From Candidatus Krumholzibacteriota bacterium (lineage in GTDB: Bacteria > Krumholzibacteriota > Krumholzibacteriia > Krumholzibacteriales > Krumholzibacteriaceae): a DNA stretch of 33,289 bases. The stretch spans positions 1 through 33,289 of the forward strand of contig JAUWMD010000002.1 of the NCBI GenBank assembly GCA_030613345.1. Reading direction: 5' to 3'. Both the position numbers and the translations under genes were made by a program. Under the pieces are notes generated by a model. The model had not been told where the DNA came from, did not search any database, and was given only the letters and a program-made list of their open reading frames with translations. The stretch's first letter is position 1, and each line of letters starts with the position of its first letter. This document shows positions 3,068-33,289 of the stretch, piece by piece.

Positions 3068-3090
3068 TCCGGAGATGAAAGACGGCAGAG

Positions 3091-6292: not shown

Positions 6293-6321
6293 TTTACAAA
6301 CGGGAACGGGACTGATAGAAT
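6293..6321 (+). promoter_or_regulatory. Sigma70-type promoter candidate for ggt
   Basis: TTTACA (6293-6298), a 17-nt spacer, then TAGAAT (6316-6321). It is followed by a direct repeat TAGTGTT-N4-TAGTGTT (6321-6338). Confidence 0.5.
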
Positions 6322-6377
6322 AGTGTTCAAGTAGTGTTATCCACAGTTACGAGGCACCAGACGCAGGATTGCTTCAG

Positions 6378-8099
6378 ATGCCCCGCAGAATGTACAAGAT
6401 CCTGTTAGTGGCGATCTCCCCTGTAATCGTCATCATCACTGTAGCGGGCGGGCTTTCGAGCGCGCTCGCGGTGGAGTGGAGCGCCCGGTCGAAGGGCGGG
6501 ATGGTCGCTTCGGCCTGCCCGGAAGCGACGGCTGCCGGTGTCCGTGTGCTGGAAGCGGGAGGAAACGCCGTCGATGCGTCGATCGCCGTAGGGTTCGTAC
6601 TTGCGGTGAGCTATCCCGCCGCCGGTAATATCGGAGGCGGCGGATTCATGCTCATACGCCTGGCTGATGGAGAGACCTCCTTGATCGATTTCAGGGAAAA
6701 GGCTCCGTCAGGGGCGCACAGGGACATGTATCTCGATCGGGATGGCGATGTCATAGAGGATCTCAGCGTCCGCGGCCATCTCGCCTCGGGAGTGCCGGGA
6801 ACGGTGGCAGGGTTCTGGAAGGCTCACCAGATGCATGGATCGACCGAATGGAGGGAACTGGTCGCTCCATCGGTCGAGCTGGCGGAGAATGGATTCCCGG
6901 TAGGACCCCATCTGGCCGCATCACTCGAGAAGCTGCACGTACATCTGGAGAAGTGGCCCGGCCTCTCGAAGTTTTTCGACAGGGAAGGCAGGCCATTCGA
7001 CGTCGGCGATATCCTCGTGCAGCACGATCTTGCCCGAACCCTCGAAGCGATAGCGGAAGAGGGCCCGGACGGCTTCTACTCGGGCAGGACCGCAGGGCTC
7101 ATTGAGGAGGAGATGAGGAGAGGGGGCGGCCTGATCACGGAGGAGGACCTCGCTTCATACGAGGCTGTCGAGCGGGAGCCGGTGAAAGGGAGCTACAGGG
7201 GATTCGATATCATATCCGCGCCTCCGCCGAGCTCCGGCGGCGTCGTACTGCTGGAAATACTGAACATTCTCGAGGGTTACGATATCGGTGGGATGAGGGA
7301 CATCGAGGAGGTTCATCTCGTCATCGAGGCCGAGAGAAGGGCATATGCCGACAGGGCTCAGTGGCTCGGCGACCCCGATTTTGCGGATATTCCTGTAGAG
7401 AGGCTGATATCAAAAGATTATGCAGGTGACTTGAGAAACAACATAAAGACACGGGCGGCACGTTCCGTCGAACTGGATGCAGGCGGCAGTCATATGACTG
7501 AGAGCGAGGAGACGACGCATTACTCGGTAGTAGACGCCGGTGGGAACGCGGTGGCGGTGACAACGACGCTCAACGGATCGTATGGATCGTATGTCGTCGT
7601 AGGGGGATCCGGCTTCCTGATGAACAACGAGATGGACGATTTCTCCGTCAAGCCAGGCGTTGCGAACATGTACGGGCTGACGGGCGGTGAGGCCAATGCG
7701 ATCGTACCGGGGAAGAGGATGCTCAGCTCCATGTCGCCGACGATCGTAGTCAGGGACGGCGAGACCTGGCTGGTGCTGGGCAGTCCCGGCGGATCGACGA
7801 TAATCACGACTGTCGCGCAGGTGATGATGAATATAATCGATTTCGGGATGGAACCTCTGGAAGCGGTAGCTGCTCCGAGGTATCATCACCAGTGGAGCCC
7901 CGATCTCGTCTACCACGAGGAAAACGCTTTCACGGCAGATGAGAGGGCAGGGCTGGAGAGGAAGGGACACGAACTGAGACGGCGCCCTCCTATCGGGGAC
8001 GTGCAGCTCATCATGAAGGACGGAACGTCCCTGGTGGGCATCTCCGATACGAGAAGGGGCGGACTCTCCCGGGGAACCGGGAAGGATGAGAGTCAATAA
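6378..8099 (+). CDS. ggt: Gamma-glutamyltranspeptidase / glutathione hydrolase proenzyme
   Basis: There is an N-terminal signal/anchor (ILLVAISPVIVIITVAGGLSSALA). GGT family blocks are GGNAVDA, GNIGGGGFMLI and the autoprocessing/catalytic Thr context ETTHYSVVDAGGNAVAVTTTLNGSYGS, plus MNNEMDDF and PGKRMLSSMSPT. The ATG at 6378 is preferred over the tracked TTG at 6369 because AGGA lies 9 nt upstream. Confidence 0.93.
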   Translation: MPRRMYKILLVAISPVIVIITVAGGLSSALAVEWSARSKGGMVASACPEATAAGVRVLEAGGNAVDASIAVGFVLAVSYPAAGNIGGGGFMLIRLADGETSLIDFREKAPSGAHRDMYLDRDGDVIEDLSVRGHLASGVPGTVAGFWKAHQMHGSTEWRELVAPSVELAENGFPVGPHLAASLEKLHVHLEKWPGLSKFFDREGRPFDVGDILVQHDLARTLEAIAEEGPDGFYSGRTAGLIEEEMRRGGGLITEEDLASYEAVEREPVKGSYRGFDIISAPPPSSGGVVLLEILNILEGYDIGGMRDIEEVHLVIEAERRAYADRAQWLGDPDFADIPVERLISKDYAGDLRNNIKTRAARSVELDAGGSHMTESEETTHYSVVDAGGNAVAVTTTLNGSYGSYVVVGGSGFLMNNEMDDFSVKPGVANMYGLTGGEANAIVPGKRMLSSMSPTIVVRDGETWLVLGSPGGSTIITTVAQVMMNIIDFGMEPLEAVAAPRYHHQWSPDLVYHEENAFTADERAGLERKGHELRRRPPIGDVQLIMKDGTSLVGISDTRRGGLSRGTGKDESQ

Positions 8100-19841: not shown

Positions 19842-20420
19842 ATGCTTAAAAGAGAAGTGGTTTACGAGTCTGTACTGGATCATGATTTTCTCGACGAGAT
19901 CTATTCGCTTCCCGGCGGACAAGAGATAAAGAAGTGTATCCAGTGCGGGACATGCAGCGGTTCATGCCCGCAGGGCGCCGTTATGGACTACGCTCCGAGG
20001 AAGATATTCTCCCTCATAAGGGCCGGATTCAGGGACGAGGTGCTCGAATCGAACACTATATGGTACTGCTCGTCGTGCTATACATGCGCTGTGAGATGTC
20101 CCAAGGAGATCAAGATCACCGACGTCATGTACGCCCTCAAACGCATCGCAATCAAGGAAGGCAAGGCGAAGAAAGGGAGGAAAGCGGCGATCCTTTCGAA
20201 TAATTTCGTCAGATTGGTAAACAAGTACGGGCGGAATCACGAGACAGAGCTTATGACCCGTTACATACTGTTTGCGGAGCCGCATCACGCCTTCAATTTC
20301 ATTCCCCAGGGCTGGAAGCTTTTCTCTAACGGCCGCCTGCCCATAATGCCTCACAAGATTAAGAATATCGATCAGTTACGAAAGATCCTGAAGAAGGTCG
20401 ACGAGCTGGGGGAAATATAA
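19842..20420 (+). CDS. hdrC: Heterodisulfide reductase subunit C-like (2x[4Fe-4S]), copy 1
   Basis: Cluster motifs are CIQCGTCSGSCP and CSSCYTCAVRCP, with conserved KITDVMYALKRIA. Its stop overlaps the hdrB start (TAATG). Confidence 0.9.
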   Translation: MLKREVVYESVLDHDFLDEIYSLPGGQEIKKCIQCGTCSGSCPQGAVMDYAPRKIFSLIRAGFRDEVLESNTIWYCSSCYTCAVRCPKEIKITDVMYALKRIAIKEGKAKKGRKAAILSNNFVRLVNKYGRNHETELMTRYILFAEPHHAFNFIPQGWKLFSNGRLPIMPHKIKNIDQLRKILKKVDELGEI

Positions 20421-21319
20421 TGAAGTACACTTATTATCCCGGGTGTTCCGTGAAGGCGACCGCGAATCTTTACCAGGAATCGATCGACTCCGTTACCCCC
20501 TTGCTCGGCATAGAACTCGAGGAACTGGAAGACTGGAACTGCTGCGGAGCGACAGCCTACATGTCTGTCAGGGAGCTGATGAGCTTCGCCATCTCCGCAA
20601 GGAACCTGGCGCTGGCTGAGAAGCACCACCGCGACATCGTAACTCCGTGCAGCGCCTGCTACCTCGTCCTGAAAAAGACCAACCAGTATTTCGCCGATTA
20701 TCCCAATCTGAGAAAGAAGCTCGGCCAGGCTCTCGAAGCCGGCGGTCTGAGCTACAGCGGCAACACGCGGGTCCGGCATATACTCAACGTGATCGTCAAC
20801 GATGTCGGTATGGAAAAGATCGCCGGACTGGTTAAAAAGAAGCTCAAAGGTCTCAACGTCGCTCCTTACTACGGTTGTCAGATCGTCAGGCCTCACTACT
20901 ACGGGTGTGGAGCGGACGAGGAGAATATTGATGATCCGGACAATCCGGTCAGCATGGACAGGTTGATCGAGGCAACTGGAGCCACCTGCGTCAAGTATTC
21001 GATGAAGACGAAATGTTGCGGTTCGTCTTTGATGGGTACCGAGGAAAAGCAGGCTATGAAGCTGTGCATGGAGATCCTGGCCGACGCGGAAAGCAACGGG
21101 GCTCATTGCATCGTGACGATCTGCCCGCTGTGCCAGATGAACCTCGATGTTTACCAGTCGAAGGTAAACAGGCTGTTCGGCACGAAATTCAATATTCCTG
21201 TCATATACTTCACGCAGCTGATAGGGCTGGCGTTGGACAGACCGGCGAAGGAACTCGGGCTGGGAAGGCTCGCGGTGAAGATGACCAGGCCGATGAAACA
21301 GATACTACAGGGAGCGTGA
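20420..21319 (+). CDS. hdrB: Heterodisulfide reductase subunit B-like (two CCG domains), copy 1
   Basis: The first CCG domain is YYPGCS...NCCGA...PCSACY and the second is YYGCQ...KCCGSS...CPLCQ. Confidence 0.92.
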   Translation: MKYTYYPGCSVKATANLYQESIDSVTPLLGIELEELEDWNCCGATAYMSVRELMSFAISARNLALAEKHHRDIVTPCSACYLVLKKTNQYFADYPNLRKKLGQALEAGGLSYSGNTRVRHILNVIVNDVGMEKIAGLVKKKLKGLNVAPYYGCQIVRPHYYGCGADEENIDDPDNPVSMDRLIEATGATCVKYSMKTKCCGSSLMGTEEKQAMKLCMEILADAESNGAHCIVTICPLCQMNLDVYQSKVNRLFGTKFNIPVIYFTQLIGLALDRPAKELGLGRLAVKMTRPMKQILQGA

Positions 21320-21320
21320 T

Positions 21321-23324
21321 ATGTCTGAACGTATTGGTGTATACGTCTGCCACTGCGGTACGAACATCGCCGGCAAGGTAGACATCGACGAGGTGGTCGA
21401 GTTCGCCAAAGGGCTTGATGACGTCACGCTCGTGAGGGAATACAAGTTCATGTGTTCCGATCCCGGGCAGTCGCTCATCCAGAAAGATATCGAGGATGGC
21501 CTGATCAACAGGGTCGTCGTCGCGTCCTGCTCTCCGTTGATGCACGAGAAGACATTCAGGAACGTGTGCACCCGTGGTGGCCTGAACGAATACCTCTTTA
21601 CGATGGCCAATATCCGCGAGCAGTGCTCGTGGGTGCACGTAGATGTCGAACGGACGACGGACAAGGCGAAGGACCTGATAGAAGCGGCTGTAAGAAGGAC
21701 GAGGCTCCAGGAGCCCCTGACGAAGAGGGAAGTCCCGATCAACCCGAGGACTCTGGTCATCGGCGGCGGCATAGCCGGCATACAGGCAGCGCTCGACCTT
21801 GCCGACGCCGGCAAGAATGTCGTTCTCGTCGAGAAGGAGCCCTCGATCGGCGGCCACATGGCCAAGTTCGACAAGACCTTTCCGACGCTCGATTGCTCGG
21901 CATGTATCCTGACACCAAAAATGGTATCGGTCGGCCAGCACGAGAACATCGAGCTGATGTCCTGGTCGGAGGTCGAGGATGTCGGCGGCTATGTCGGAAA
22001 CTTCAACGTCACAGTCCGAAAGAAGGCAAGGTACGTTGACGTGGATCTGTGCAACGGATGCGGCGCCTGCTGGGAGAAGTGCCCGGGAACGCGGGTGCCC
22101 CGCAAGGGCAACGTCCATGAGAAACTCTCGCTCGGACCTGTGACTTCGATATTTATACCTTTCATGCAGGCAGTGCCGGCGATCCCGGTGATAGACGCCG
22201 AAACCTGCATCCGTTTCAAGAACGGCAAGTGCGGTATCTGCGCCGAGGTATGCGAACGCAACGCGATCAAGTACGACATGGAGGACGAGTTGGTCGAGTT
22301 CGAGGTAGGCAACATCATCCTTGCCACCGGCTTCCAGCCCTTCGATCCGGCACAGATCGGGAATTATGGCTACGGGATATTCGACAACGTCCTTACCGCC
22401 GTAGAATTCGAGATAATGAACTGCGCCTCCGGCAACACGGGCGGAAATATCCTGATGGCCGACGGGACCGAACCAAAATCGATCGGAATAGTCCATTGTG
22501 TGGGAAGCCGGGACAAGAATTACAACGAATATTGTTCGAGGGTCTGCTGCATGTACGCCCTGAAATACGCGCATCTTATAAAGGAGAAGATCGATGCGGA
22601 AGTCTACGATTTCTACATCGACATGAGATGTTTCGGCAAGGGGTACGAGGAATTCTATGACAGGCTGCTGGGGGAGGACGTTAGGTTCGTTCGCGGCAAG
22701 GTGGCTGAAGTCACCGAAGTGCATCTGGAGGAGGCTGAAAGGGGAAAACTCGTCGTCAAGGTGGAGGACACGCTGGTCGGTTCGATACGCCGGATCCCGC
22801 TCGACATGGTCGTTCTATGCACTGGTCTCGAAGCGCACGAGACCCTTCCCGCCGTGGCGAATCTCTGCAACGTCAGTATCGGCAAGGACGGTTTTGTCAT
22901 AGAGAAGCATCCCAAGCTCGGCCCCGTTGCCACGGCGACGGACGGGGTTTTTATCGCAGGCGCTTGCCAGTCGCCGAAAGACATCCCCGATACGGTCGCC
23001 CAGGCTTCAGCCGCTTCGAGCGCGGTCCTGTCGATGATCACAAGGGAAAAGATCGAGATCGAATCGGCAACGGCGGAAGTAAACGAGGACAAGTGTTCGG
23101 GCTGCAAGATATGTAACACTCTGTGTCCTTATCTGGCGATCAAGTATGATGAGGAGAAAGGGGTCTCCGTCGTCAACGAGGCTCTTTGCAAGGGTTGCGG
23201 GACATGCGTTGCGGGGTGCCCCAGCAATGCGATATCGGCAAAGCATTTCCAGAACAACCAGATCCTGGCAGAAATCGAGGGGATCCTCCGCAGCAGCAGT
23301 GGACAGGCCGGAATTTTGGCTTGA
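21321..23324 (+). CDS. hdrA: Heterodisulfide reductase subunit A-like FAD/Fe-S flavoprotein, full length, copy 1
   Basis: The N-terminal Cys cluster is VYVCHCGTNIAG..FMCSDPG..SCSPLMHE..REQCSW, and the FAD fold is GGGIAGIQAALDLA..GGHM..FDKTFPTLDCSACILTPKM. The inserted ferredoxin is CNGCGACWEKCP...CIRFKNGKCGICAEVC. The C-terminal ferredoxin is CSGCKICNTLCP...CKGCGTCVAGCP. Confidence 0.93.
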   Translation: MSERIGVYVCHCGTNIAGKVDIDEVVEFAKGLDDVTLVREYKFMCSDPGQSLIQKDIEDGLINRVVVASCSPLMHEKTFRNVCTRGGLNEYLFTMANIREQCSWVHVDVERTTDKAKDLIEAAVRRTRLQEPLTKREVPINPRTLVIGGGIAGIQAALDLADAGKNVVLVEKEPSIGGHMAKFDKTFPTLDCSACILTPKMVSVGQHENIELMSWSEVEDVGGYVGNFNVTVRKKARYVDVDLCNGCGACWEKCPGTRVPRKGNVHEKLSLGPVTSIFIPFMQAVPAIPVIDAETCIRFKNGKCGICAEVCERNAIKYDMEDELVEFEVGNIILATGFQPFDPAQIGNYGYGIFDNVLTAVEFEIMNCASGNTGGNILMADGTEPKSIGIVHCVGSRDKNYNEYCSRVCCMYALKYAHLIKEKIDAEVYDFYIDMRCFGKGYEEFYDRLLGEDVRFVRGKVAEVTEVHLEEAERGKLVVKVEDTLVGSIRRIPLDMVVLCTGLEAHETLPAVANLCNVSIGKDGFVIEKHPKLGPVATATDGVFIAGACQSPKDIPDTVAQASAASSAVLSMITREKIEIESATAEVNEDKCSGCKICNTLCPYLAIKYDEEKGVSVVNEALCKGCGTCVAGCPSNAISAKHFQNNQILAEIEGILRSSSGQAGILA

Positions 23325-23432
23325 CGTGTTAGGAGAGTTTGGTTAGCATAAGTCTCTATTTTTCACCGTTTTTCGATGGGGGGCGGAGCAGGCTTCTTCT
23401 CACGTGTAACTTGAATATTCGGCGGGAGTGGA

Positions 23433-24005
23433 ATGAATACGCACAAGCTCAAGCAAAAAGCCATCGATAAGGATTTTCTTGATGAGATTGCGCATCTGCC
23501 CGGCGGAGAGCGGATTATCGACTGCTTTCAGTGCGGTACCTGCAGCGGCTCCTGCCCGACAGCTCACGTGATGGATCACACGCCCCGCCGTCTGTTCGCG
23601 ATGGTGAAAGCGGGGTTCCGCGAGGATGTACTCAACAGCAACACATACTGGTACTGCACTTCCTGCTACATATGCACTGTCAGGTGTCCGCGCCAGATAA
23701 AGATCACCGATGTAATGTACGCGTTGAAGCGAATAGCCCTTAAGGAGAGGTACGTTCGGAGAAAGAACGCAGCGGGGGCATTTTACAGTTCCTTCGTCGA
23801 TATTGTCGAGCGGGATGGAAGGAGCTTCGAACCGGAACTGATGGTCCGCTTCATGCTGAAGACCGACCCCACGCTTCTCCTGAAAAATGCTGTGCTGGGG
23901 CTGAAGCTCATGAAACACGGCCGCCTTCCGATTCGCCGTAACAGGATCAAGGCCAGAAACGAGTTGAGAGCGATCATTCGAAAGGCAAAGAGCGAAAGCT
24001 TGTAA
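23433..24005 (+). CDS. hdrC: Heterodisulfide reductase subunit C-like, copy 2
   Basis: Cluster motifs are CFQCGTCSGSCP and CTSCYICTVRCP, with the same KITDVMYALKRIA block as copy 1. It has a TAATG overlap with hdrB2. Confidence 0.9.
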   Translation: MNTHKLKQKAIDKDFLDEIAHLPGGERIIDCFQCGTCSGSCPTAHVMDHTPRRLFAMVKAGFREDVLNSNTYWYCTSCYICTVRCPRQIKITDVMYALKRIALKERYVRRKNAAGAFYSSFVDIVERDGRSFEPELMVRFMLKTDPTLLLKNAVLGLKLMKHGRLPIRRNRIKARNELRAIIRKAKSESL

Positions 24006-24889
24006 TGGCGACGAAACAGAGCTATATCTATTATCCCGGTTGTTCGGCCGAGGCGACGGGAAAGCCGTACGAGATTTCGGCGAGAGCTGTATGCGAGCAC
24101 CTGGATATAGAGCTGAAGGAACTTGCCGACTGGAACTGCTGCGGCGCTACGGCTTATCTCTCCGTCGAGGATATTGCCTCGATGGCGGTAGCCGCGAGAA
24201 ATCTGGCCATCGCCGAATCGACCGGACTCGACCTCATTACGCCATGCAGCGCCTGCTATATCACGCTGAGCAAGGTCGACCACTATTTCGAAGATTATCC
24301 GGACATACGTACGAAGATCAACAACGCACTCTCCGCCGCGGGACTGGAATACAAAGGGGGAGTAAATGTCCGGCACCTCCTGTATGTATTTTCCGAAGAC
24401 ATCGGGATGGAACGCCTCTCCGGCATGGTCAGGGCGGATTTGTCTTTGAGGGTGGCTCCGTACTACGGCTGCCAGGTCGTAAGACCGTTCACCGAAAGGG
24501 ACAGCCCAGATGTCCCGTTCGCGATGGACGAAATCATCTCAGCCCTTGGCGGCGATGTCGTGGATTATCCTCTCAAGACAAAATGCTGCAGCGGAGCGTT
24601 GATCGGCATCGACGAAAAAACCGCTCTGGGTCTCGCGAAGCCGCTCATCGAATGCGCCGTACGCAGCGGCGCCGACTGCATAGTGACATGCTGCCCCCTG
24701 TGTCAGCTCAATCTTGACGCCTACCAGTACAAGATCAACAAGGTATACGGGACGAATTACCATATTCCAGTGTTGTTTTTCACGCAATTGATCGGGCTCG
24801 CGTTCGGTATCGACGAGGGAAGACTCGGTCTGAATATGAACATTGTGCCGTACAGGCCGGCCGCTAGAGCGAAAGGTGCTTCAGGATGA
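24005..24889 (+). CDS. hdrB: Heterodisulfide reductase subunit B-like, copy 2
   Basis: The CCG domains are YYPGCS...NCCGA...PCSACY and YYGCQ...KCCSGA...CPLCQ. It has an ATGA overlap with the next gene. Confidence 0.92.
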   Translation: MATKQSYIYYPGCSAEATGKPYEISARAVCEHLDIELKELADWNCCGATAYLSVEDIASMAVAARNLAIAESTGLDLITPCSACYITLSKVDHYFEDYPDIRTKINNALSAAGLEYKGGVNVRHLLYVFSEDIGMERLSGMVRADLSLRVAPYYGCQVVRPFTERDSPDVPFAMDEIISALGGDVVDYPLKTKCCSGALIGIDEKTALGLAKPLIECAVRSGADCIVTCCPLCQLNLDAYQYKINKVYGTNYHIPVLFFTQLIGLAFGIDEGRLGLNMNIVPYRPAARAKGASG

Positions 24890-25743
24890 CCAAGAATGGA
24901 GCGAAGGAAGAAACGCCACGGATCGGCGTGTACTTGTGTCACTGCGGGTCGAACATCGCCGGGATGGTCAATATCCCGGAGGTTGCCGAGTTCGTGAGGG
25001 AACTGGACAATGTCGCGCTTGTCAGAGACTACCGATTCATGTGTTCGGAACCCGGCCAGGAACTGATCGCCAAGGATATCAAGGAGCATGATCTCGAACG
25101 GGTCGTCGTCGCCGCCTGCAGCCCACTTATGCACGAAAAGACTTTTCGCGAAGCCGTGGAAACGGCCGATCTCAACCGTTATCTCATGCAGATGGCCAAT
25201 GTCAGGGAACATTGCTCCTGGGTGACCGCCGACAGTTCATACGCCACGGAAAAGGCGAAGGCTCTCGTGGCTGCTGCGGTCGGCAAGGCGGTATGGCTGG
25301 AGCCCCTGAAAACCAAGAAAGTCCCTATCCATCCTGATACGCTGATAGTGGGTGGAGGAATAGCCGGTATCCAGGCGGCATTGATCATTGCCGAGGCCGG
25401 CAAGAAGGTGTATCTGGTCGAACGTTCCCCCGCCCTGGGCGGCCATATGTCGCATTTCGACAAAACATTCCCGACGCTGGACTGCGCCGCATGCATACTG
25501 ACTCCGAAGATGGTGGCGGTCGGCAAACATCCGAACGTTGAACTGTTGACATGGTCCGAGGTCGAGGAAGTATCCGGATACATCGGAAATTTCACGATCA
25601 AGATCAGGAAAAAACAGCGCTTCGTCGACGAGGACCGCTGTAACGGTTGCGGAGACTGCTGGGAAGCATGCCCCAGTACGACATCACCCAGAAAGAGAAG
25701 AATCACGATCGAGGGCAGGTTGATCAATGAAAGAGTGCTGTAA
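24886..25743 (+). CDS. hdrA: HdrA-like N-terminal half (N-domain, first part of the FAD fold, first CxxCxxCxxxCP of the inserted ferredoxin); split-gene product
   Basis: It is colinear with HdrA1 aa 1 to ~258: VYLCHCGSNIAG, FMCSEPG, ACSPLMHE, REHCSW, GGGIAGIQAALIIA, GGHM..FDKTFPTLDCAACILTPKM and CNGCGDCWEACP (25639-25674). Homology ends after ..PRK, and a TAA stop lies at 25741-25743. Confidence 0.85.
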   Translation: MTKNGAKEETPRIGVYLCHCGSNIAGMVNIPEVAEFVRELDNVALVRDYRFMCSEPGQELIAKDIKEHDLERVVVAACSPLMHEKTFREAVETADLNRYLMQMANVREHCSWVTADSSYATEKAKALVAAAVGKAVWLEPLKTKKVPIHPDTLIVGGGIAGIQAALIIAEAGKKVYLVERSPALGGHMSHFDKTFPTLDCAACILTPKMVAVGKHPNVELLTWSEVEEVSGYIGNFTIKIRKKQRFVDEDRCNGCGDCWEACPSTTSPRKRRITIEGRLINERVL

Positions 25744-26233
25744 CTCCGGACGAAACATGTCGAAGATCAAGGAAGTGCGGCCCGAGAAAGTGGCGGAGAT
25801 ACTGGAGAGCTTCGAGCATCGTGTCGATTCGCTGATCATGATCCTCCAGGACATCCAGGAAGAGTACCGGTACCTGCCCGAGGATGCGCTTCGGATCGTC
25901 GCTGATGATCTGGATCTTCCGTTATCCCAGCTTTACGAGGTGGCAACGTTCTATCGCTCGTTCAGTCTGGAGCCGCGCGGAACGCACGAGGTGAAGGTCT
26001 GCCTGGGAACGGCCTGTCATCTCAGGGGAGGCCCCATGATCCTTGAAAACTTCGAAAGGGTACTGGGAGTGAAAGCCGGGCAGACGACGCCGGATCTCGA
26101 CTTCACGCTTGAAACGGTAAACTGCGTAGGAGCCTGCGCACTGGCACCGCTGGTACTCGTAGATTCCGATTACCACGGCGAGACGAGACCGAGTAAGGTC
26201 AAGGATATATTGGGCAAGTATTCACAGAAGTAG
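25727..26233 (+). CDS. nuoE: NuoE/HydC-type thioredoxin-like [2Fe-2S] protein
   Basis: The cluster motifs are VCLGTACHLRG (C-x4-C) and NCVGACALAP (C-x3-C). GAGGGCAGG lies 8 nt upstream of the ATG at 25727, and the ATG at 25757 is an alternative start. Confidence 0.88.
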   Translation: MKECCNSGRNMSKIKEVRPEKVAEILESFEHRVDSLIMILQDIQEEYRYLPEDALRIVADDLDLPLSQLYEVATFYRSFSLEPRGTHEVKVCLGTACHLRGGPMILENFERVLGVKAGQTTPDLDFTLETVNCVGACALAPLVLVDSDYHGETRPSKVKDILGKYSQK

Positions 26234-26239
26234 GACGCC

Positions 26240-28141
26240 ATGTCGGTTGAAACGAATATTCGTTTCCAGTCTCCTCCAGAGCTTTCCGCTTTTCGTGACC
26301 GGCTGAGCTCCGAGCGCAGGGATGACATTAACAGGATCACGATATGCGCTGGAACGGGATGTGTCGCCAAGGGAAGCATACGTGTGTTTGAGAAATTTAC
26401 CGAGGCGATCGAATCCCGTCAGCTCGACGCGACGGTCGAGCTGAAGATTTCAGGTTGCCACGGCTTTTGCGAGAATGGCCCCCTCGTCGTCATGAAACCG
26501 GCAGGCATCCTGTACATGGAGGTAAGAGAGCGGGACGTGGATGATATCGTCGAAAAAACAGTTACAACCGGCGAAATCATCGAAAGACTCCTGTACAAGG
26601 ATCCGGTTTCGGGCGAACGAGCACGGAACGAGGATGAGATCCCTTTCTACAAGAAACAGATGCGCGTCGTTCTACGCAATATCGGCAAGATCGATCCCAA
26701 CAACATCGATGATTACATAGCCGTCGGCGGCTATTCCTCGCTCGCCAAGGTTCTTTCCGGTCTCCAGCCTGAAGAGGTCATCTCGATGATCGAGCGATCG
26801 GGGCTGCGCGGACGAGGAGGGGGAGGATTCCCGACGGGCAGGAAATGGAGATCGTGCAGGAATGCACCGGGGGACATCCACTATGTCGTTTGCAACGGTG
26901 ATGAAGGAGATCCCGGAGCGTTCATGGACCGAAGTCTAATGGAAGGGGATCCGCACAGTATTCTGGAAGGAATGATCATCGGCGCATACGCCATCGGTGC
27001 GGAAGACGGGTTCGTTTACGTACGTATGGAGTATCCCCTCGCGATCGAGCGCCTGTTGAATGCGATACGGGATGCGGAGGTGTACGGACTTCTTGGTGGG
27101 AACATACTCGGATCCGGCTTTGATTTCAGGATCAGGATCAACAGGGGGGGCGGAGCGTTCGTGTGCGGTGAGTCTACGGCGCTGATGGCATCTCTGGAAG
27201 GGAGGGCCGGCGAACCCCGGGCGAAATACATACATACCGTCGAGAAGGGCCTCTGGGATAAACCGACGAACCTGAACAACGTCGAAACATGGGCAAATGT
27301 TCCGCCCATCATCGAGCGGGGCCCCGAATGGTTCAGTTCCCTGGGAACTGATGGCAGCAAGGGAACGAAGGTGTTCTCACTCGTTGGCAAGGTGAAGAAC
27401 ACGGGTCTCGTCGAGGTGCCCATGGGAATCACGCTTCGTGAGATCCTTTTCGATATCGGTGGGGGCGTCAAGGGCACGAAAAAATTCAAGGCTGTTCAGA
27501 CTGGCGGCCCATCCGGCGGATGCCTCGTCGTCGATGTAGAGGAGAAGGGAAAGAAGGGCGCGTTCAACTTGATCGATCTCCCGGTAGATTTCGACCGGTT
27601 GACAGAGGTCGGATCGATGATGGGATCCGGCGGGATGATCGTTATGGATGAGGATGACTGCATGGTCGATGTCGCCAAATATTTCCTCAGCTTCCTGAAA
27701 GAGGAATCGTGCGGCAAATGCGTACCGTGCAGAGAGGGAATACGACACATGCTCACGATACTCGACAGGATCACGAACGGAGAGGGAAGCGCGGAGGATC
27801 TGCAGCTGCTCGAGGAGCTTGCTGAAACGATAGCCGAAGCGTCGCTCTGCGCTCTTGGAACCCAGGCGCCAAATCCGATCCTGAGCACTTTGAACTATTT
27901 CAGATCCGAATACGAAGCGCACATATTCGAAGGGAAGTGCCCAGCGGGGGTATGCAAGCAGCTGGTGACATACTCGATATCGGCGGATAACTGTACCGGC
28001 TGCACACTCTGCGCGAAGAACTGTCCGGCCGGTTGCATCAGCGGCGAGCCGAAGGAATTGCACACCCTTGATTCGAGCACATGTATCAAGTGCGGTATCT
28101 GTTACGACGTGTGCAATTTCGACGCGGTGATCAGGAGATAA
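26240..28141 (+). CDS. nuoF: NuoF/HydB-type NAD(H)-binding FMN Fe-S flavoprotein with an N-terminal [2Fe-2S] domain and a C-terminal 2x[4Fe-4S] domain
   Basis: The N-terminal domain carries ICAGTGC...SGCHGFC. The core carries GLRGRGGGGFPTGRKW (FMN), VVCNGDEGDPGAF (NADH) and ESCGKCVPCREG...LCALG (the N3-type cluster). The C-terminus carries CTGCTLCAKNCP and CIKCGICYDVC. Confidence 0.92.
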   Translation: MSVETNIRFQSPPELSAFRDRLSSERRDDINRITICAGTGCVAKGSIRVFEKFTEAIESRQLDATVELKISGCHGFCENGPLVVMKPAGILYMEVRERDVDDIVEKTVTTGEIIERLLYKDPVSGERARNEDEIPFYKKQMRVVLRNIGKIDPNNIDDYIAVGGYSSLAKVLSGLQPEEVISMIERSGLRGRGGGGFPTGRKWRSCRNAPGDIHYVVCNGDEGDPGAFMDRSLMEGDPHSILEGMIIGAYAIGAEDGFVYVRMEYPLAIERLLNAIRDAEVYGLLGGNILGSGFDFRIRINRGGGAFVCGESTALMASLEGRAGEPRAKYIHTVEKGLWDKPTNLNNVETWANVPPIIERGPEWFSSLGTDGSKGTKVFSLVGKVKNTGLVEVPMGITLREILFDIGGGVKGTKKFKAVQTGGPSGGCLVVDVEEKGKKGAFNLIDLPVDFDRLTEVGSMMGSGGMIVMDEDDCMVDVAKYFLSFLKEESCGKCVPCREGIRHMLTILDRITNGEGSAEDLQLLEELAETIAEASLCALGTQAPNPILSTLNYFRSEYEAHIFEGKCPAGVCKQLVTYSISADNCTGCTLCAKNCPAGCISGEPKELHTLDSSTCIKCGICYDVCNFDAVIRR

Positions 28142-28149: not shown

Positions 28150-29925
28150 ATGGAAGAAAAGGAAGCAAGTCAGGTTCTCGTGCATCTGGAAGTCGACGGG
28201 AAATCCGTATCCCTCGCTGAGGGTTCCACGATCCTCGATGCGGCCAAACTGCTCGGCGTACAAATCCCGACGCTGTGCTATACGCCTCTGGTCGAGCCAT
28301 ACGCCGCATGCCGCCTCTGTTCCGTCGAGGTCGAGTATCCCCGCGGCGGAGGCAAGGTCGTGACCGCCTGCAATTACCAGGTATGGGACGGTATCAAGGT
28401 GCGCACGGACACCGACAAGATACGTCGTATTCGCGGCATGATCGTAGAAATGCTCCTCGCGCGATGCCCGGATATCCAGGTACTGAAAGATCTCGCCGAA
28501 GAATACGGTATCGAGAAGGTTCGTCTCGAGAAGCAGGAAGAGGGGTGCATTCTCTGCGGCCTCTGCGTGCGGGTCTGCGCAGAGCTAGTCGGGGCGCATG
28601 CGATCTCATTTGCGGGCAGAGGCCTCGACCGCCGGGTAGCGACTCCGTACGACAAGTCGAGTGACGCCTGTATCGCGTGCGGTGCATGCGCACTGGTATG
28701 CCCGACGAAGATCATTCATGTCGAGGATCAGGAAGGTCGCGAAATCATCCATGAAGAACTCTCTCTGGGACCTTCCAAAGCGATCACCCTGCCGTTTATG
28801 CAGGCGGTGCCGAATATACCATATATCGACACGGAACATTGCATACATTTCCAGACAGGTGAGTGTGGGTACTGCGCGAAGATCTGCGACAGGGATGCGA
28901 TCGATTACGAATTGCAGGAAGAAACGATCGAGGTGGATGTGGGGAATATAATCATGGCGACGGGCTTCGAACTGTTCGACCCTTCCGTAATGGGACAATA
29001 CGGCTACGGGCGCCTGAAAAACGTGGTAACCTCGCTCGAATTCGAGCATCTGAACTGCGCCGCGGGACCAACCGGCGGACGGATCCTGATGACCGACGGC
29101 GGAGAGCCGTCGAGTGTCGGAATCATACACTGCGTCGGAAGCAGGGACGAGAATTATTACAAGTACTGTTCCCGGGTATGCTGCATGTATGCGCTGAAAT
29201 ACGCGCACCTGATAAAGGAAAAGACAGATGCGGACGTCTATAGTTTTTACATCGATATGAGATGCTTCGGAAAGGGATACGAGGAATTCTACCACAGGCT
29301 GCTCGAGGAAGGGGTCCAGTTCATCAGGGGACGGGCGGCGGAGATCACCGATTACGCGATAGATTCCGACGAAGAGGGAAAGCTGATTGTCCTCTGCGAG
29401 GATACCCTGATAGGCGCCCTTCGCCGGATACCTCTCGATATGGTGGTGTTGTGCTCCGCCATGAAATCGAATGAGGATGCCAAGGAGCTGTCGCGAATAT
29501 TCTCGTGCAGCCTGGGAAGCGATGGCTTCTTCATTGAGAAACATCCGAAACTCGCACCGGTATCCACTACTTCCGACGGAGTATTCATCGCCGGCGGCTG
29601 TCAGGGTCCGAAGGATATTCCGGATACCGTGGCTCAGGGAGCGGCGGCTGCAGCCGAAGTCCTTTCGCTGATTGACAGGAAAGAAGTCGAGGTCGAAGCG
29701 GCGATCGCTGTCGTGGACGAGGATCGATGCTCCGGATGCAAACTGTGCAACACGCTCTGTCCGTACCTCGCTGTCAAGTACGATGAGGAAAAAGGCGTTT
29801 CCGTGGTGAATGAAGCGCTCTGCAAGGGATGCGGTACCTGTGCCGCGGGATGTCCGAGTAACGCCATATCCGCGAGACACTTCGAGAACAGACAGATATT
29901 CGCCGAGATAGAAGGTCTTCTTTGA
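28150..29925 (+). CDS. hdrA: Fusion protein: NuoG/HydA-N-terminal-type [2Fe-2S] + 2x[4Fe-4S] module (aa 1-200) joined to the HdrA C-terminal half (aa ~201-591)
   Basis: The N-terminal module carries CYTPLVEPYAACRLCSVEV..TACNY, CILCGLCVRVC and CIACGACALVCP (28669-28704). From HEELSLGP (nt 28750) it is colinear with HdrA1 from HEKLSLGP (nt 22116) to the C-terminus. Shared blocks are CIHFQTGECGYCAKIC (28840-28887), IHCVGSRD, CSRVCCMYALKYAHLIKEK, DMRCFGKGYEEFY, GVFIAGGCQGPKDIPDTVAQ and CSGCKLCNTLCP...CKGCGTCAAGCP. Confidence 0.88.
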   Translation: MEEKEASQVLVHLEVDGKSVSLAEGSTILDAAKLLGVQIPTLCYTPLVEPYAACRLCSVEVEYPRGGGKVVTACNYQVWDGIKVRTDTDKIRRIRGMIVEMLLARCPDIQVLKDLAEEYGIEKVRLEKQEEGCILCGLCVRVCAELVGAHAISFAGRGLDRRVATPYDKSSDACIACGACALVCPTKIIHVEDQEGREIIHEELSLGPSKAITLPFMQAVPNIPYIDTEHCIHFQTGECGYCAKICDRDAIDYELQEETIEVDVGNIIMATGFELFDPSVMGQYGYGRLKNVVTSLEFEHLNCAAGPTGGRILMTDGGEPSSVGIIHCVGSRDENYYKYCSRVCCMYALKYAHLIKEKTDADVYSFYIDMRCFGKGYEEFYHRLLEEGVQFIRGRAAEITDYAIDSDEEGKLIVLCEDTLIGALRRIPLDMVVLCSAMKSNEDAKELSRIFSCSLGSDGFFIEKHPKLAPVSTTSDGVFIAGGCQGPKDIPDTVAQGAAAAAEVLSLIDRKEVEVEAAIAVVDEDRCSGCKLCNTLCPYLAVKYDEEKGVSVVNEALCKGCGTCAAGCPSNAISARHFENRQIFAEIEGLL

Positions 29926-29962: not shown

Positions 29963-30448
29963 ATGAGTTTCGAGCCTAGGATAGTCGGATTCCTCTGCAA
30001 CTGGTGTTCTTACACGGGGGCCGATCTCGCCGGGACGGCAAGGATCAAGTACGCTCACAACATCAGGTCTATCAGAGTGATGTGCAGCGGCAGGATCGAG
30101 CCGACCTACATCATGAAGGCGCTCTATGAAGGCGCGGATGGGGTGCTTATCGCTGGTTGTCATCCTGGAGATTGCCACTATCAGGAAGGCAATTACAAGG
30201 CGCTCAGGCGGTACATGCTTCTGAAACGTATCCTGTCCGAATACGGCATCGAACCGGAGCGCCTCAGGCTCGAATGGGTGGCGGCATCGGAGGGAGAACG
30301 ATTCGCCAGGATCGTTGACGATTTCACAGAGCAGTTACGGAAACTTGGTCCGCTTGCCATAAAGGAATCGATCGCCGAAGCGATGAAGGACGACATTGAT
30401 CCTCATGAAGCTCACAACGTAGAAAGCGGTGAGGCAGATGAAGCTTAA
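29963..30448 (+). CDS. mvhD: MvhD/FlpD-type hydrogenase delta subunit ([2Fe-2S] electron-transfer protein)
   Basis: It carries IVGFLCNWCSYTGADLAG...IRVMCSGRIEP...GADGVLIAGCHPGDCHYQEGN, the canonical MvhD pattern. Confidence 0.9.
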   Translation: MSFEPRIVGFLCNWCSYTGADLAGTARIKYAHNIRSIRVMCSGRIEPTYIMKALYEGADGVLIAGCHPGDCHYQEGNYKALRRYMLLKRILSEYGIEPERLRLEWVAASEGERFARIVDDFTEQLRKLGPLAIKESIAEAMKDDIDPHEAHNVESGEADEA

Positions 30449-31391
30449 AGGCGGTATCTACTGGGGAGCTGGATGTGGCGGTTGCGATGTCGCCGTGCTC
30501 GACCTCCATGAAAAAATCCTCGATGTAGCCGAGAAGATGGACCTGCTGTTCTGGCCCATCGCACTCGATTTCAAATACGACGATGTCCGGGCCATGGAAG
30601 ACGCCGAGTTCGATATCGTCCTGTACAACGGGGCGATCAGAAATTCTGAAAACGAAGAGATGGCCAAACTCCTCAGGCGCAAGTCGAAGACCATGGTCGC
30701 CCTCGGAGCCTGTGCTCATATCGGCGGGCTGCCCAGCCTGGCCAACTATCACACGAAGCAGTCAGTGTTGGAGCGAGTCTACTTGGAGACTGAATCGAAC
30801 GAAAATCCCGACGGCACAATGCCGTTGGAGAGGTCGACTGTGGACGGAAACGAGCTTGAGCTTCCGAGATTCTACAACACTGTCAAGACGCTCGATCAGG
30901 TCGTCGACGTTGATTACTATATTCCCGGTTGCCCACCCGTTCCTGAACAGATATTTTCTGCCCTTTCCGCCGTTTTCATCGGTGAGCTTCCCCCGAAAGG
31001 GTCTGTGATCGGGGCCGGTACTAAAACCCTCTGCGACGAGTGCCCGCACGAGAAGGAAGAGAAAGAGATAAGCATTATCAAGCGGCCTCTCGAGATGATC
31101 CCCGAGCCGGGGAAATGCCTGCTCGAACAGGGTCTCATCTGTCTCGGGCCGGTCACGAGGGAGGGGTGCGGCGCCAGGTGCATCAACTCCGGTGTGCCGT
31201 GCAGGGGATGTTACGGTCCCCTTGATGACGTATACGATCAGGGAGTCAAGATGGTCAGCGCGCTCGCCTCGGTCCTGGAACCGAAGGAAGAGAAAGAGAT
31301 CGACAAGGTGCTCGATGGGATAGTCGATCCGCTCCGGACATTTCACAGGTTCAGCACTGCTGCTTCGATACTGAGGAGGAAAAAGGTATGA
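30438..31391 (+). CDS. mvhG: [NiFe]-hydrogenase small subunit, group 3 (MvhG-type)
   Basis: Motifs are GCGGCDVAVLD, GACAHIGG, YIPGCPP, CDECPH and CLGPVTREGCGARCINSGVPCRGCYGP. The ATG at 30438 is preferred, and the tracked GTG at 30429 is also possible. The gene overlaps the end of mvhD. Confidence 0.9.
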   Translation: MKLKGGIYWGAGCGGCDVAVLDLHEKILDVAEKMDLLFWPIALDFKYDDVRAMEDAEFDIVLYNGAIRNSENEEMAKLLRRKSKTMVALGACAHIGGLPSLANYHTKQSVLERVYLETESNENPDGTMPLERSTVDGNELELPRFYNTVKTLDQVVDVDYYIPGCPPVPEQIFSALSAVFIGELPPKGSVIGAGTKTLCDECPHEKEEKEISIIKRPLEMIPEPGKCLLEQGLICLGPVTREGCGARCINSGVPCRGCYGPLDDVYDQGVKMVSALASVLEPKEEKEIDKVLDGIVDPLRTFHRFSTAASILRRKKV

Positions 31392-32848
31392 AGCGCGTAG
31401 ATATAGATCCGATCACACGCCTCGAAGGCCATGGGAAGATAAGCATATTCATCAACGACGACGGATCGGTCGAGAACGCATACCTTCAGATTCCGGAGTT
31501 GAGGGGGTTCGAGAAATTCGTAGAGGGTCTCCCTGTGGAGGAGATCCCCCGGATCATGCCTAGGATATGCGGCGTTTGCCCGGCGGCCCATCACATGGCC
31601 GCGGGGAAAGCCGTTGACAACGTGTTTAGAGTGGAGATTCCGCTGGTAGCTAAAAAACTCCGGGAAATGTATTACATGGCGCATTATATCCATAGCCACG
31701 CCGCTCATTTCTACGCTCTCGCGGCTCCGGATTTCGTTCTCGGACCACAGGCCCCGAAGGCCGAAAGAAATGTTCTCGGGCTGATAAACAAGGTCGGATT
31801 GAAGCTCGGCAGGGAAGTGCTCAGGCAGAGAGGGATTTCGCAGGAAATACAGATTATGATAGGAGGCCGCGCCACGCATCCCGTATGGAACATTCCCGGC
31901 GGAGTGACGCGTGCACTCAGCGACGAGAACGCAGAGAAGGTCAAGAGTCTTGCCGCTGAACAGGTCGGCTTCGCAGAGCTGAGCCTGAAGTTGTTCAACG
32001 ATCTCGTATTGAGCAACAGCGACTATCTCGAGCTTATAATGGGCGATATATTCGAACAGGTGACCAACTACATGGGGCTGGTCGACGATGACAATAAGGT
32101 GAATTTCTACCATGGGAAGGTACGGGTTACGGATATAAACGGGGAAGAGTTGTTCAAGTACTCCGAACCGGAATACCTCGATTACATAGCCGAACATGTC
32201 GAACCTTGGTCCTACCTTAAATTCCCCTATATCAAGGACAGGGGCTGGAAAGGATTCGTCGAGGGCGAAGGGACTCCTCTCTTCCAGGCCAATCCGCTTC
32301 CGCGGCTCAATGCGGCGGACGGGATGGCGACACCGAAGGCTCAGGAAGAGTACGAGAAGATGTTCGAGACCGTCGGCGGAAAACCGTGCCACAAGCTGAT
32401 GGTGAACCACTGGGCGAGGCTCATAGAGATGCTCTATGCCGCCGAGCGGATGCAGGAGTTGATCAACGATCCGGAGATCACAGATCCGAACGTAAGGGTG
32501 ATCCCATCGACCACGCCGAGAGAGGGTGTGGGAATCGTCGAGGCCCCTCGCGGAACACTCACGCATCACTACTGGACCGACGAGAACGGGATCGTGACCA
32601 AGGCAAACCTGATCGTCGGGACGACGAATAACAACGCCTCGATAAACATGGCCGTCAAAAAGGCGGCCCAGAATCTCATCAAGCCGGGCGGCGAAGTGAC
32701 CGAAGGGCTGCTCAACATGGTCGAGATGGCGTTCCGTCTGTACGATCCGTGCTTCAGCTGCGCTACGCACAGTCTGCCCGGAAAGATGCCGCTTACAGTC
32801 GAGATACGCGATCTCGACGGCGAGATACTGAACGAGGTATCGAGGTAG
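31388..32848 (+). CDS. mvhA: [NiFe]-hydrogenase large subunit, group 3c (MvhA-type)
   Basis: It has N-terminal RLEGHGKI and RICGVCPAAH (L1). The C-terminal DPCFSCATH (L2) is followed by a 25-aa extension, which would be the protease substrate. It has an ATGA overlap with mvhG. Confidence 0.93.
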   Translation: MKRVDIDPITRLEGHGKISIFINDDGSVENAYLQIPELRGFEKFVEGLPVEEIPRIMPRICGVCPAAHHMAAGKAVDNVFRVEIPLVAKKLREMYYMAHYIHSHAAHFYALAAPDFVLGPQAPKAERNVLGLINKVGLKLGREVLRQRGISQEIQIMIGGRATHPVWNIPGGVTRALSDENAEKVKSLAAEQVGFAELSLKLFNDLVLSNSDYLELIMGDIFEQVTNYMGLVDDDNKVNFYHGKVRVTDINGEELFKYSEPEYLDYIAEHVEPWSYLKFPYIKDRGWKGFVEGEGTPLFQANPLPRLNAADGMATPKAQEEYEKMFETVGGKPCHKLMVNHWARLIEMLYAAERMQELINDPEITDPNVRVIPSTTPREGVGIVEAPRGTLTHHYWTDENGIVTKANLIVGTTNNNASINMAVKKAAQNLIKPGGEVTEGLLNMVEMAFRLYDPCFSCATHSLPGKMPLTVEIRDLDGEILNEVSR

Positions 32849-32878
32849 CGCATCGTGGAAGATTCCGGGAGTAATCCG

Positions 32879-33289
32879 ATGAAAACGGTTATCATCGGTC
32901 TGGGTAATACCGTCCTGAGCGACGACGGCGCCGGGGTGTATGTCGCGCGCATGTTATCCGGGAGGTTCGGAGACGACGTAACCGTTATCGAGACGGAAAG
33001 CGCAGGGATGAACCTGATGGAGATGCTCGGAGGCTTCGACAGGGCTGTTCTGGTCGACGCGATCCTTCTCGACGGCGAGGAGGCGGGTACGGTATTCCGG
33101 CTGCGTGCAGACGACCTGAAGATCACCCCCAGACTGTCTTCATGCCACGACATCGATTTAGTCACCGCCCTCGAGCTGGGAAGGCAGCTCGGAATGCATA
33201 TGCCCGGCGAGGTGACGATATTCGCCATACAGGGAGAAGACATGCTCACTCTCTACGAGGGCTGTACCCGGAAGGTGGAAGAGTCGCTT
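32879..33289 (+). CDS. Hydrogenase maturation endopeptidase (HycI/HybD/FrhD family), 3' partial; not present in the supplied ORF track
   Basis: My own translation from the ATG at 32879 (GGGAG 7 nt upstream) gives MKTVIIGLGNTVLSDDGAGVYVARML...AVLVDAILLDGEEAGTVFRL...SSCHDIDLVTALELGR... It is open for 137 codons to the window edge. GLGN..(L)SDDG.G and the downstream D...H are the family metal-ligand signatures. Confidence 0.85.
   Translation, partial: MKTVIIGLGNTVLSDDGAGVYVARMLSGRFGDDVTVIETESAGMNLMEMLGGFDRAVLVDAILLDGEEAGTVFRLRADDLKITPRLSSCHDIDLVTALELGRQLGMHMPGEVTIFAIQGEDMLTLYEGCTRKVEESL

Follow-up and report, generated by a model that had tools for sequence, protein, structure and literature searches.

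A Type-2 Bfu gene set within a split hdrA gene beside an Mvh-type [NiFe] hydrogenase in Candidatus Krumholzibacteriota, and its predicted place in an Mvh-Hdr-Bfu complex

The DNA analyzed here (referred to as the window) comprises positions 1-33,289 of the forward strand of contig JAUWMD010000002.1, from the genome assembly GCA_030613345.1 of a Candidatus Krumholzibacteriota bacterium. A preliminary description of this DNA had noted a NuoE/NuoF-like gene pair of the bifurcation-associated type at 25727-28141, and both open reading frames were indeed found there on the + strand, encoding 168 and 633 amino acid residues (bfuC and bfuB). The pair is located between the two halves of a divided hdrA gene, and the third gene of the set, bfuA, is fused to the second of these halves. 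It is therefore the relation of this Bfu module to the Hdr proteins and to the adjacent [NiFe] hydrogenase that is considered below. Thirteen genes, all pointing the same way, were deduced from the list of open reading frames between 19842 and the window end, with names based on Pfam; the two parts of the fused gene are given on separate lines after it.

19842-20420, + strand: hdrC1 (Pfam)
20420-21319, + strand: hdrB1 (Pfam)
21321-23324, + strand: hdrA1, intact, 667 aa (Pfam)
23433-24005, + strand: hdrC2 (Pfam Fer4 dicluster)
24005-24889, + strand: hdrB2 (Pfam, two CCG domains)
24886-25743, + strand: hdrA2-N, N-terminal fragment of HdrA, 285 aa (similarity to HdrA1)
25727-26233, + strand: bfuC, NuoE/HydC-like, 168 aa (Pfam 2Fe-2S_thioredx, 1e-48)
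26240-28141, + strand: bfuB, HydB-type NuoF, 633 aa (Pfam, structure alignments, tree, ligands)
28150-29925, + strand: bfuA::hdrA2-C fusion, 591 aa, with Fer2_4 and 2x[4Fe-4S] followed by HdrA (Pfam)
28150-28737, + strand: BfuA-type Fe-S head, residues 1-196 of the fusion (alignment to 9mqx_A)
28741-29925, + strand: hdrA2-C, residues ~198-591 of the fusion (similarity to 5odc_A and HdrA1)
29963-30448, + strand: mvhD (Pfam FlpD)
30429-31391, + strand: mvhG (Pfam Oxidored_q6)
31388-32848, + strand: mvhA, Mvh-type [NiFe] hydrogenase (Pfam NiFeSe_Hases)
32855-33289, + strand: HycI-like hydrogenase maturation protease, cut by the window end (Pfam HycI, 5e-11)

The junctions between the operon genes are overlaps or gaps of 6-38 nt; bfuC overlaps the hdrA2-N stop by 17 nt, and bfuC and bfuB are separated by 6 nt. 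No convincing + strand terminator was found inside the operon, and no nuoA-N genes adjoin bfuC/bfuB. With E-values between 1e-40 and 1e-236, chance matches were ruled out. HdrB2 retains all 10 Cys of its two CCG motifs, and they were invariant in 10 split-type loci. Both Ni-Fe motifs were present in MvhA (RICGVCPAAH at 59 and DPCFSCATH at 453). The gene content hdr-bfu-mvhDGA thus bears out the earlier statement that an HdrA-type and a HydB-type module lie side by side next to a [NiFe] hydrogenase.

BfuC was found to carry the ligands of a single thioredoxin-like [2Fe-2S] cluster (C92, C97, C133, and C137), and it fell under the NCBIfam cut-offs for NuoE and HoxE. In BfuB, Pfam detected Complex1_51K (residues 184-355, 1.5e-43) and NADH_4Fe-4S (477-561, 5.6e-34), together with an N-terminal 2Fe-2S_thioredx piece (31-106) and a C-terminal Fer4 dicluster (579-628). 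The last two are the extra HydB-type domains that had been described earlier, namely an N-terminal thioredoxin-like [2Fe-2S] and a C-terminal 2x[4Fe-4S] domain, and the motifs quoted for them were located at residues 35-41 (ICAGTGC), 71-77 (SGCHGFC), 585-596 (CTGCTLCAKNCP), and 615-625 (CIKCGICYDVC). The sites of BfuB are as follows.

26330-26557, + strand: N-terminal thioredoxin-like [2Fe-2S] domain
26789-27304, + strand: FMN/NADH site
27668-27922, + strand: N3-type [4Fe-4S] domain
H561, C567, C572: His/Cys linker site
27974-28123, + strand: C-terminal 2x[4Fe-4S] domain

The N-terminal [2Fe-2S] ligands (C36, C41, C73, and C77) are present, the ligands of the N3-type cluster (B1; C491, C494, C497, and C537) were invariant in the alignment, and the C-terminal clusters are provided with C585/588/591/595 and C615/618/621/625; all of the cluster and linker ligands (4+4+3+8) were conserved. 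The ligands of the N-terminal [2Fe-2S], the His/Cys linker, and the C-terminal 2x[4Fe-4S] match those of 9mqx_B, 7t2r_B, and 8a6t_B and are lacking in NuoF. These are the three features (the linker being the B2/Zn site) that have been reported to be missing from non-bifurcating homologs (Schut et al. 2022, PMC9304861). The residue on the FMN side is Asp224 (CNGDEGDPGAF), as in all bifurcating references, whereas NuoF has Glu; the equivalent BamH Asp219 is stressed in a preprint on class II benzoyl-CoA reductase (BCRII; bioRxiv 10.64898/2026.04.10.717634).

When BfuB was aligned with solved structures, end-to-end matches (E-values of 1e-200 to 2e-236) were obtained with the B subunits of bifurcating complexes. 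The best was WOR-Bfu 9mqx_B (2e-236, full length), followed among the best matches by NiFe-HydABCSL 7t2r_B, Thermoanaerobacter kivui HydB 8a6t_B, A. woodii HydB, NfnABC, Stn, and T. maritima HydB; respiratory NuoF and FdsB matched residues 131-569 only (~1e-80 to 1e-112), the respiratory NuoF match being given as residues 140-561 at ~1e-109. A maximum likelihood tree was built with IQ-TREE from 37 sequences, comprising five structure-derived bifurcating references, the genome's own paralogs, 26 sequences from related loci, and the outgroups Thermus Nqo1 and M. smegmatis NuoF; HoxF and FdsB were left out, and a 428-aa NuoF fell on the NuoF side. In this tree a 100/100 branch parted the window BfuB and all Bfu-type sequences from NuoF, and the window BfuB fell into a group supported at 96/92, whose 27 rows include 23 Hdr-linked BfuBs, WOR-BfuB, and T. 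kivui HydB. No NCBIfam family was matched over its cut-off, the NuoF equivalog TIGR01959 reaching 460.7 against 558.65 over residues 145-562 only. With 633 residues and two extra domains, BfuB also differs from respiratory NuoF, which has ~430-450 aa and no extra Fe-S domains. Four independent tests (structures, tree, ligands, and FMN-side residue) agree in assigning the NuoF-like protein to the bifurcation-associated HydB/BfuB type, as had been proposed. The FMN of this subunit had been named as the bifurcation site; in the current literature on Bfu enzymes, bifurcation is attributed to the FMN jointly with nearby Fe-S clusters, not to the FMN alone.

The preliminary description had presented the pair as lacking an [FeFe] hydrogenase or formate dehydrogenase partner. 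Neither enzyme is encoded at the locus, but the pair is not an orphan, because the next protein begins with a BfuA head. In this 591-aa protein no match to Fe_hyd_lg_C (PF02906) or to a molybdopterin domain was obtained with Pfam, in agreement with the earlier remark that the third partner has neither an H-cluster nor a molybdopterin domain; PF00384 and AFOR domains were likewise absent from the locus (Pfam). The head contains the ligands of a [2Fe-2S] cluster (C43, C54, C57, and C74) and of two [4Fe-4S] clusters (C133/136/139/143 and C174/177/180/184), and residues 12-196 of the fusion aligned without gaps with residues 6-190 of the WOR-Bfu BfuA 9mqx_A (2.3e-39), which cover all of its cluster-bearing region. 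The alignment to HydA skipped the segment holding the His-ligated cluster, and this segment is absent from the BfuA head. Since that cluster is missing, the head is of Type 2 (A1, A2, and A4 only), and by its sequence the bfuC/bfuB locus belongs to Type 2 within the Bfu family as published. The sixteen Cys of the head and of the HdrA half-motif that follows it were invariant in 17 diverse homologs.

The fusion of the Fe-S head to HdrA was also found, although the partner is not a plain HdrA but only the C-terminal two-thirds of a split one, whose N-terminal third lies directly upstream of bfuC. Residues 171-591 of the fusion matched residues 245-649 of the methanogen HdrA 5odc_A (5e-115), and the HdrA part is 64% identical to HdrA1 residues 242-656. 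This part, HdrA2-C, comprises the inserted ferredoxin domain's second half-motif (C231, C239, C242, and C246), the remaining FAD domain resembling thioredoxin reductase, and the C-terminal ferredoxin domain. HdrA2-N, which is 63% identical to HdrA1 residues 2-265, contains the N-terminal domain of HdrA and its first FAD-binding fold along with the CxxC pair, and it stops ~20 residues past the first CxxCxxCxxxCP (C252-C262) of the inserted ferredoxin domain; this terminal Cys motif was kept in 21 of the 21 loci checked. HdrA similarity in the fusion restarts at '...HEELSLGP', ahead of the second Cys motif. HdrA1 2-265 therefore corresponds to HdrA2-N 10-273, and HdrA1 ~265-656 to fusion residues ~200-591: HdrA was cut clean, with nothing lost or duplicated. 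As the two half-motifs are encoded in two genes on either side of a clean cut, bfuC-bfuB-bfuA sits in a cut through the ferredoxin domain inserted in HdrA, and this two-cluster domain must be assembled from two polypeptides.

Three other explanations for parts of this arrangement were considered and rejected. BLAST had placed the first inserted-domain motif of HdrA1 on C174-C184 of the fusion, which would give the fusion a complete inserted domain of its own and make the motif in HdrA2-N redundant; this was discarded because the C174 motif is part of the BfuA head, the cut is clean, and the HdrA2-N motif was found in all 21 loci. Joining of HdrA2-N to BfuC by selenocysteine or readthrough was rejected on the grounds that the two lie in different frames with the 17-nt overlap and are separate genes in most other loci. 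Recent gene conversion between hdrA1 and hdrA2 was also dismissed as the cause of their grouping in the HdrA tree, given that third-codon-position identity was 0.25-0.6 even where the proteins were 93% identical; judged by these values, the divergence of the two genes is old and not derived from recent conversion.

Full-length relatives of the fusion protein, with 56-91% identity, formed at least 120 clusters (90% identity). The surrounding loci were surveyed with one genome per species, and 80 loci were returned. The order hdrC-hdrB-hdrA_N-bfuC-bfuB-bfuA::hdrA_C-mvhD-mvhG-mvhA-hycI was observed, complete or up to the contig end, in ~25 of them. The metagenome-assembled genomes (MAGs) bearing this order were labeled as Zixibacteria, Ignavibacteria, GN15, Armatimonadota, Aminicenantes, Calditrichota, Acidobacteriota, Myxococcota, Desulfobacterales, Anaerolineae, Verrucomicrobiota, and Planctomycetota, plus one archaeon; no cultured organism was seen among the survey hits, which were all MAGs. 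In four loci (L022, L023, L024, and L074) HdrA_N and BfuC form one polypeptide, so that both ends of the Bfu cassette are attached to HdrA there. The window BfuB shares an insertion after GGPSGG with a subclade from Zixibacteria, Ignavibacteria, and Armatimonadota. The split-HdrA/Bfu arrangement is thus a conserved and widespread operon rather than a local oddity; these statements, on the domains and ligands of the proteins, on gene order and fusions, and on conservation, are direct observations.

Variants of the arrangement were also seen. The BfuBs of L016, L019, L022, and L023 (~1030-1057 aa) have a GltD/NfnB-like Fer4_20 + Pyr_redox_2 (NADPH/FAD) module in place of the C-terminal 2x[4Fe-4S]. 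In L039, from a delta-proteobacterial MAG, HdrA_N is followed directly by BfuA::HdrA_C, with no bfuC or bfuB between and with a break in the head, and in L056 and L066 Bfu genes with a stand-alone BfuA of ~216-243 aa lie beside an unsplit HdrA; these three may be loss and intermediate forms. Single in-frame stops at conserved Cys positions were observed at HdrA position 195 (L027, L028, L031, L048, L053, and L068), MvhD position 66 (L031, L048, and L088), and MvhA position 64 (L033-L038 and L049). The stop-bearing loci include several from Chloroflexota and Krumholzibacteriota, and the stops are probably selenocysteine codons; the window genes have Cys at these positions.

The canonical set hdrC1/hdrB1/hdrA1 upstream of the split set (19842-23324) was absent from most other split-type loci. 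In the 108-nt gap 5' of hdrC2, a weak sigma-70-like site was observed (TTGACG-17-TAGCAT, window 23321-23349), and it may serve the split set as a promoter of its own, besides that at 19737; the count of sigma-70-like sites across the region was below the chance expectation.

Other Bfu genes and candidate partners were searched for in the genome assembly (314 contigs, ~82% complete), including by local tblastn. Three further HydB-type BfuB paralogs were found, each with an adjacent BfuC and BfuA. On C255 (8630-14008), the gene after BfuC and BfuB encodes more than 1029 aa, in which a BfuA head is combined with a GltD-like domain and a molybdopterin-like domain that is degenerate; this BfuB is closest to StnB 8oh5_B (1.6e-254), and the operon was therefore classed as Stn/Nfn-Bfu-like. 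C232 encodes a HydS-like Fe_hyd_lg_C protein, its own NuoE, a HydB-type BfuB, and then a HydA/NuoG-type N-terminus that has the His-ligated motif and runs off the contig end at 4631. On C193 (minus strand, 1227-6761), a tungsten aldehyde oxidoreductase (AOR)-family enzyme is split as HdrA is, its reading frames being AFOR_N::BfuC::BfuB (1068 aa from Met) and then BfuA::AFOR_C (665 aa). The C193 BfuB is the closest paralog of the window BfuB (58% identity); no mention of this split-AOR design was found in the WOR classification paper, and the design suggests that the bfu cassette may be a reusable insert. Matches to PF02906 in the genome were confined to C232 and C122, no match to a molybdopterin domain exceeded the cut-off in the ~82% complete assembly, and an Rnf complex is encoded on C143, where a match to the NuoF Pfam model proved to be RnfC rather than NuoF. 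As a side observation, the HydS-like proteins of C232 (143-1576) and C122 (2-487, minus) are near-identical, with Fe_hyd_lg_C and non-canonical H-cluster motifs, and their genes adjoin those of a histidine-kinase-like ATPase and DRTGG-type proteins. Since the window pair has its own BfuA head fused in cis, and the other three BfuBs each have their own BfuC and BfuA, the window pair is served in cis; the genome check for a HydA or formate dehydrogenase partner that had been called for earlier pointed to none outside the locus in the ~82% complete assembly.

Based on these results, bfuC/bfuB are proposed to encode two subunits of a complete Type-2 Bfu module of the HydABC family (NAD(H)/ferredoxin), which would be built into an Mvh-Hdr-Bfu supercomplex running in the direction H2 to HdrA FAD to BfuBC, and we give this proposal a probability of about 0.72. 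The BfuA wire, comprising the [2Fe-2S] and two [4Fe-4S] clusters, is linked covalently to HdrA's C-terminal part at the inserted-domain cut, and MvhD-MvhG-MvhA, the customary mid-potential input, are kept. MvhAG would oxidize H2, and MvhD would hand the electrons to the FAD of HdrA; the high-potential electron would then pass via HdrC2 and HdrB2 to a disulfide, while the low-potential electron would enter the BfuBC core through the inserted domain and BfuA and would be shared there between NAD+ and ferredoxin. Overall, two bifurcation devices would operate in series. Previous studies of methanogen Hdr have shown that the inserted ferredoxin domain is the low-potential exit from the bifurcating FAD, where the polyferredoxin VhuB docks (PMC13518236). 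Bfu enzymes with low-potential third substrates (aldehyde, pyruvate, and CO) are known or have been proposed, and in BCRII a Bfu-type and an HdrA-type module form one working complex (bioRxiv 10.64898/2026.04.10.717634).

A bolder extension of this proposal, which we regard as tentative, is a two-stage cascade in which the electron driven out of HdrA by H2 and disulfide would be wired into the Bfu core and bifurcated again to NADH and ferredoxin of extra-low potential. In such a cascade the electron would be transferred by wire and not via a diffusible ferredoxin, and the ferredoxin output would be more reducing than that of either module alone. The bfuC-bfuB-bfuA set could also be a plug-in cassette at Fe-S domain boundaries of unrelated redox enzymes, in this genome HdrA and the C193 AOR.

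Several points weigh against the proposed supercomplex and its direction. The Mvh-Hdr-Bfu complex, with its wiring, direction, and substrates, is inferred from sequence alone. In BCRII, the Bfu module delivers its electrons to HdrA at the mid-potential input (C-terminal ferredoxin domain plus an MvhD-like adaptor) and not at the inserted domain (bioRxiv 10.64898/2026.04.10.717634), so that the direction and role suggested for the window genes follow from sequence topology only. The reduction of NAD+ with the low-potential electron of HdrA looks wasteful unless the ferredoxin output is at very low potential, and the extra canonical hdrC1B1A1 set could compete with the split set for the single MvhDGA. 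Moreover, the Hdr-linked BfuBs did not form one clade, those of L022 and L023 being near Stn-type BfuB in the tree. In the HdrA tree, the window HdrA2-C grouped with the tandem HdrA1 beside it and with canonical HdrAs from Krumholzibacteriota MAGs (SH-like approximate likelihood ratio test, 98), apart from other split HdrA-C sequences, which indicates a mosaic evolutionary history.

Among the rival explanations, the one that survives best, though we consider it unlikely, is that the same complex works in reverse, as in BCRII, where confurcation at BamGH is followed by bifurcation at BamE (bioRxiv 10.64898/2026.04.10.717634). BfuCBA would confurcate NADH and reduced ferredoxin and feed HdrA for disulfide reduction and/or H2 evolution by MvhAG, thereby disposing of fermentative reductant. 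Bfu enzymes are reversible (PMC9304861), many of the host lineages, e.g., Ignavibacteria and Aminicenantes, have been described as fermenters that re-oxidize NADH and ferredoxin via hydrogenases (PMC7509429), and the genome encodes the Rnf complex. However, the Bfu module is joined to HdrA at the inserted ferredoxin domain, i.e., the low-potential arm, and not at the C-terminal ferredoxin domain/MvhD input as in BCRII; an electron at ~-400 mV together with a high-potential electron derived from thiols would fall short of the H2 couple unless the H2 pressure is very low; and the catalytic site of HdrB is complete.

Far less probable is a plain, non-bifurcating diaphorase like HoxEFU or NuoEFG, giving Mvh-Hdr a link to NAD(H) with no ferredoxin site in use. 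The FMN/NADH core is common to NuoF, the best NCBIfam names were HoxE, NuoE, NuoF, and HoxU (every one under its cut-off), and the replacement of the BfuB C-terminal ferredoxin domain by a GltD-like module in four of the related loci implies that the ferredoxin site is dispensable in some lineages. The window BfuB, on the other hand, keeps every cluster reported absent from non-bifurcating homologs (PMC9304861) and has Asp rather than Glu beside the FMN, and the 100/100 branch separates it from NuoF. Lastly, the idea that the pair works for an [FeFe] hydrogenase or formate dehydrogenase whose genes lie elsewhere, its position next to hdr being incidental, could appeal to the ~82% completeness of the genome, the truncated BfuA/HydA-type N-terminus on C232, and the two HydS-like proteins, but it is close to refuted, given that the other BfuBs each adjoin their own BfuC and BfuA, that the pair is bracketed by two halves of one gene with BfuA fused to that gene, that this bracket is conserved across phyla, covalent HdrA_N::BfuC fusions included, and that no molybdopterin-domain match exceeded the cut-off in the assembly.

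The supercomplex proposed here, with Bfu fed from HdrA, would be an addition to the types described so far. The published list of the Bfu family comprises FeFe-, NiFe-, Nfn-, Fdh-, F420-, Wor-, FdhFeFe-, Bam-, Codh-, Por-, Mbh-, Nuo-, and Rub-Bfu, but no Hdr/Mvh-Bfu (PMC9304861). The Bfu family and the combination of Bfu with HdrA in Bam have already been published; a Bfu set spliced into a split HdrA beside Mvh was not found in the literature searched, and an earlier description is possible. Coupling of Bfu- and HdrA-type modules has so far been shown in BCRII only, in a 2026 preprint. If the proposal is true, the operon represents a second and much more widespread coupling of the two, with Bfu on the low-potential arm of HdrA and a hydrogenase attached, and it is a natural test of how Bfu and HdrA are gated when hard-wired together. 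By their labels, the MAGs with this operon belong to many anaerobic phyla that are uncultured. Such loci are routinely scored in MAG papers as plain group 3c MvhADG/HdrABC (PMC7509429), and for this reason models of the H2, NADH, and ferredoxin balance of those organisms may be wrong.

Compared with known systems, the window genes share the FMN/NADH fold and the N3-type [4Fe-4S] with respiratory NuoE/NuoF, the N-module of complex I; NuoF, as described above, differs in its FMN-side Glu and in lacking the N-terminal [2Fe-2S], the His/Cys linker, and the C-terminal 2x[4Fe-4S]. The cofactor sites of the BfuBC core are the same as those of HydABC [FeFe] and HydABCSL [NiFe] (7P5H, 8A6T, 7Q4V, and 7T2R), but in those enzymes the H-cluster domain or the NiFe subunits sit directly on a BfuA that has the His-ligated cluster, whereas the window, in contrast to HydABC (group A3), has no H-cluster domain and its hydrogenase would be linked through MvhD and HdrA. 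WOR-Bfu (WorABCSL) of Acetomicrobium mobile (9MQX) provided the best match for both BfuB and the BfuA head, and both systems have the Type-2 set A1, A2, and A4; in WOR-Bfu a polyferredoxin wire bears the third partner, a tungsten aldehyde oxidoreductase, while in the window this partner is HdrA with a hydrogenase.

HdrC, HdrB, the HdrA domains, MvhD, MvhG, and MvhA resemble those of methanogen MvhAGD-HdrABC and Hdr-Vhu-Fwd (5ODC, 8RVU, and 7BKB). There, the exit partner of Hdr is free ferredoxin or a polyferredoxin (VhuB or FwdF), whereas the window encodes a covalent BfuA wire that would lead to BfuBC. HdrA of group 3c MvhADG-HdrABC is one chain of ~650 aa, as opposed to the 285 aa plus fusion residues 198-591 of HdrA2.

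The sole characterized enzyme that joins a HydBC/Bfu-type module to an HdrA-type flavoprotein is BCRII of Geobacter metallireducens, Bam[(BC)2DEFGHI]2 ('Bam-Bfu'), in which BamGHI is the Bfu module, BamE is HdrA-type, BamF is an MvhD-like adaptor, and BamD is HdrBC-like; its BfuA is of Type 2, as here (PMC9304861; bioRxiv 10.64898/2026.04.10.717634). In Bam-Bfu the path runs from BamI to the C-terminal ferredoxin domain of BamE, then to BamF and the FAD, and the inserted ferredoxin domain of BamE leads to the tungsten subunits. In the window, by contrast, the BfuA head is fused at the inserted ferredoxin domain, the [NiFe] hydrogenase and MvhD stand at the input, and the tungsten AOR-type subunits BamB and BamC are absent. 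Furthermore, HdrA of the window is a split single HdrA whereas BamE is a fused HdrA dimer, and all 10 Cys are present in the window HdrB, while BamD has a degenerate distal cluster.

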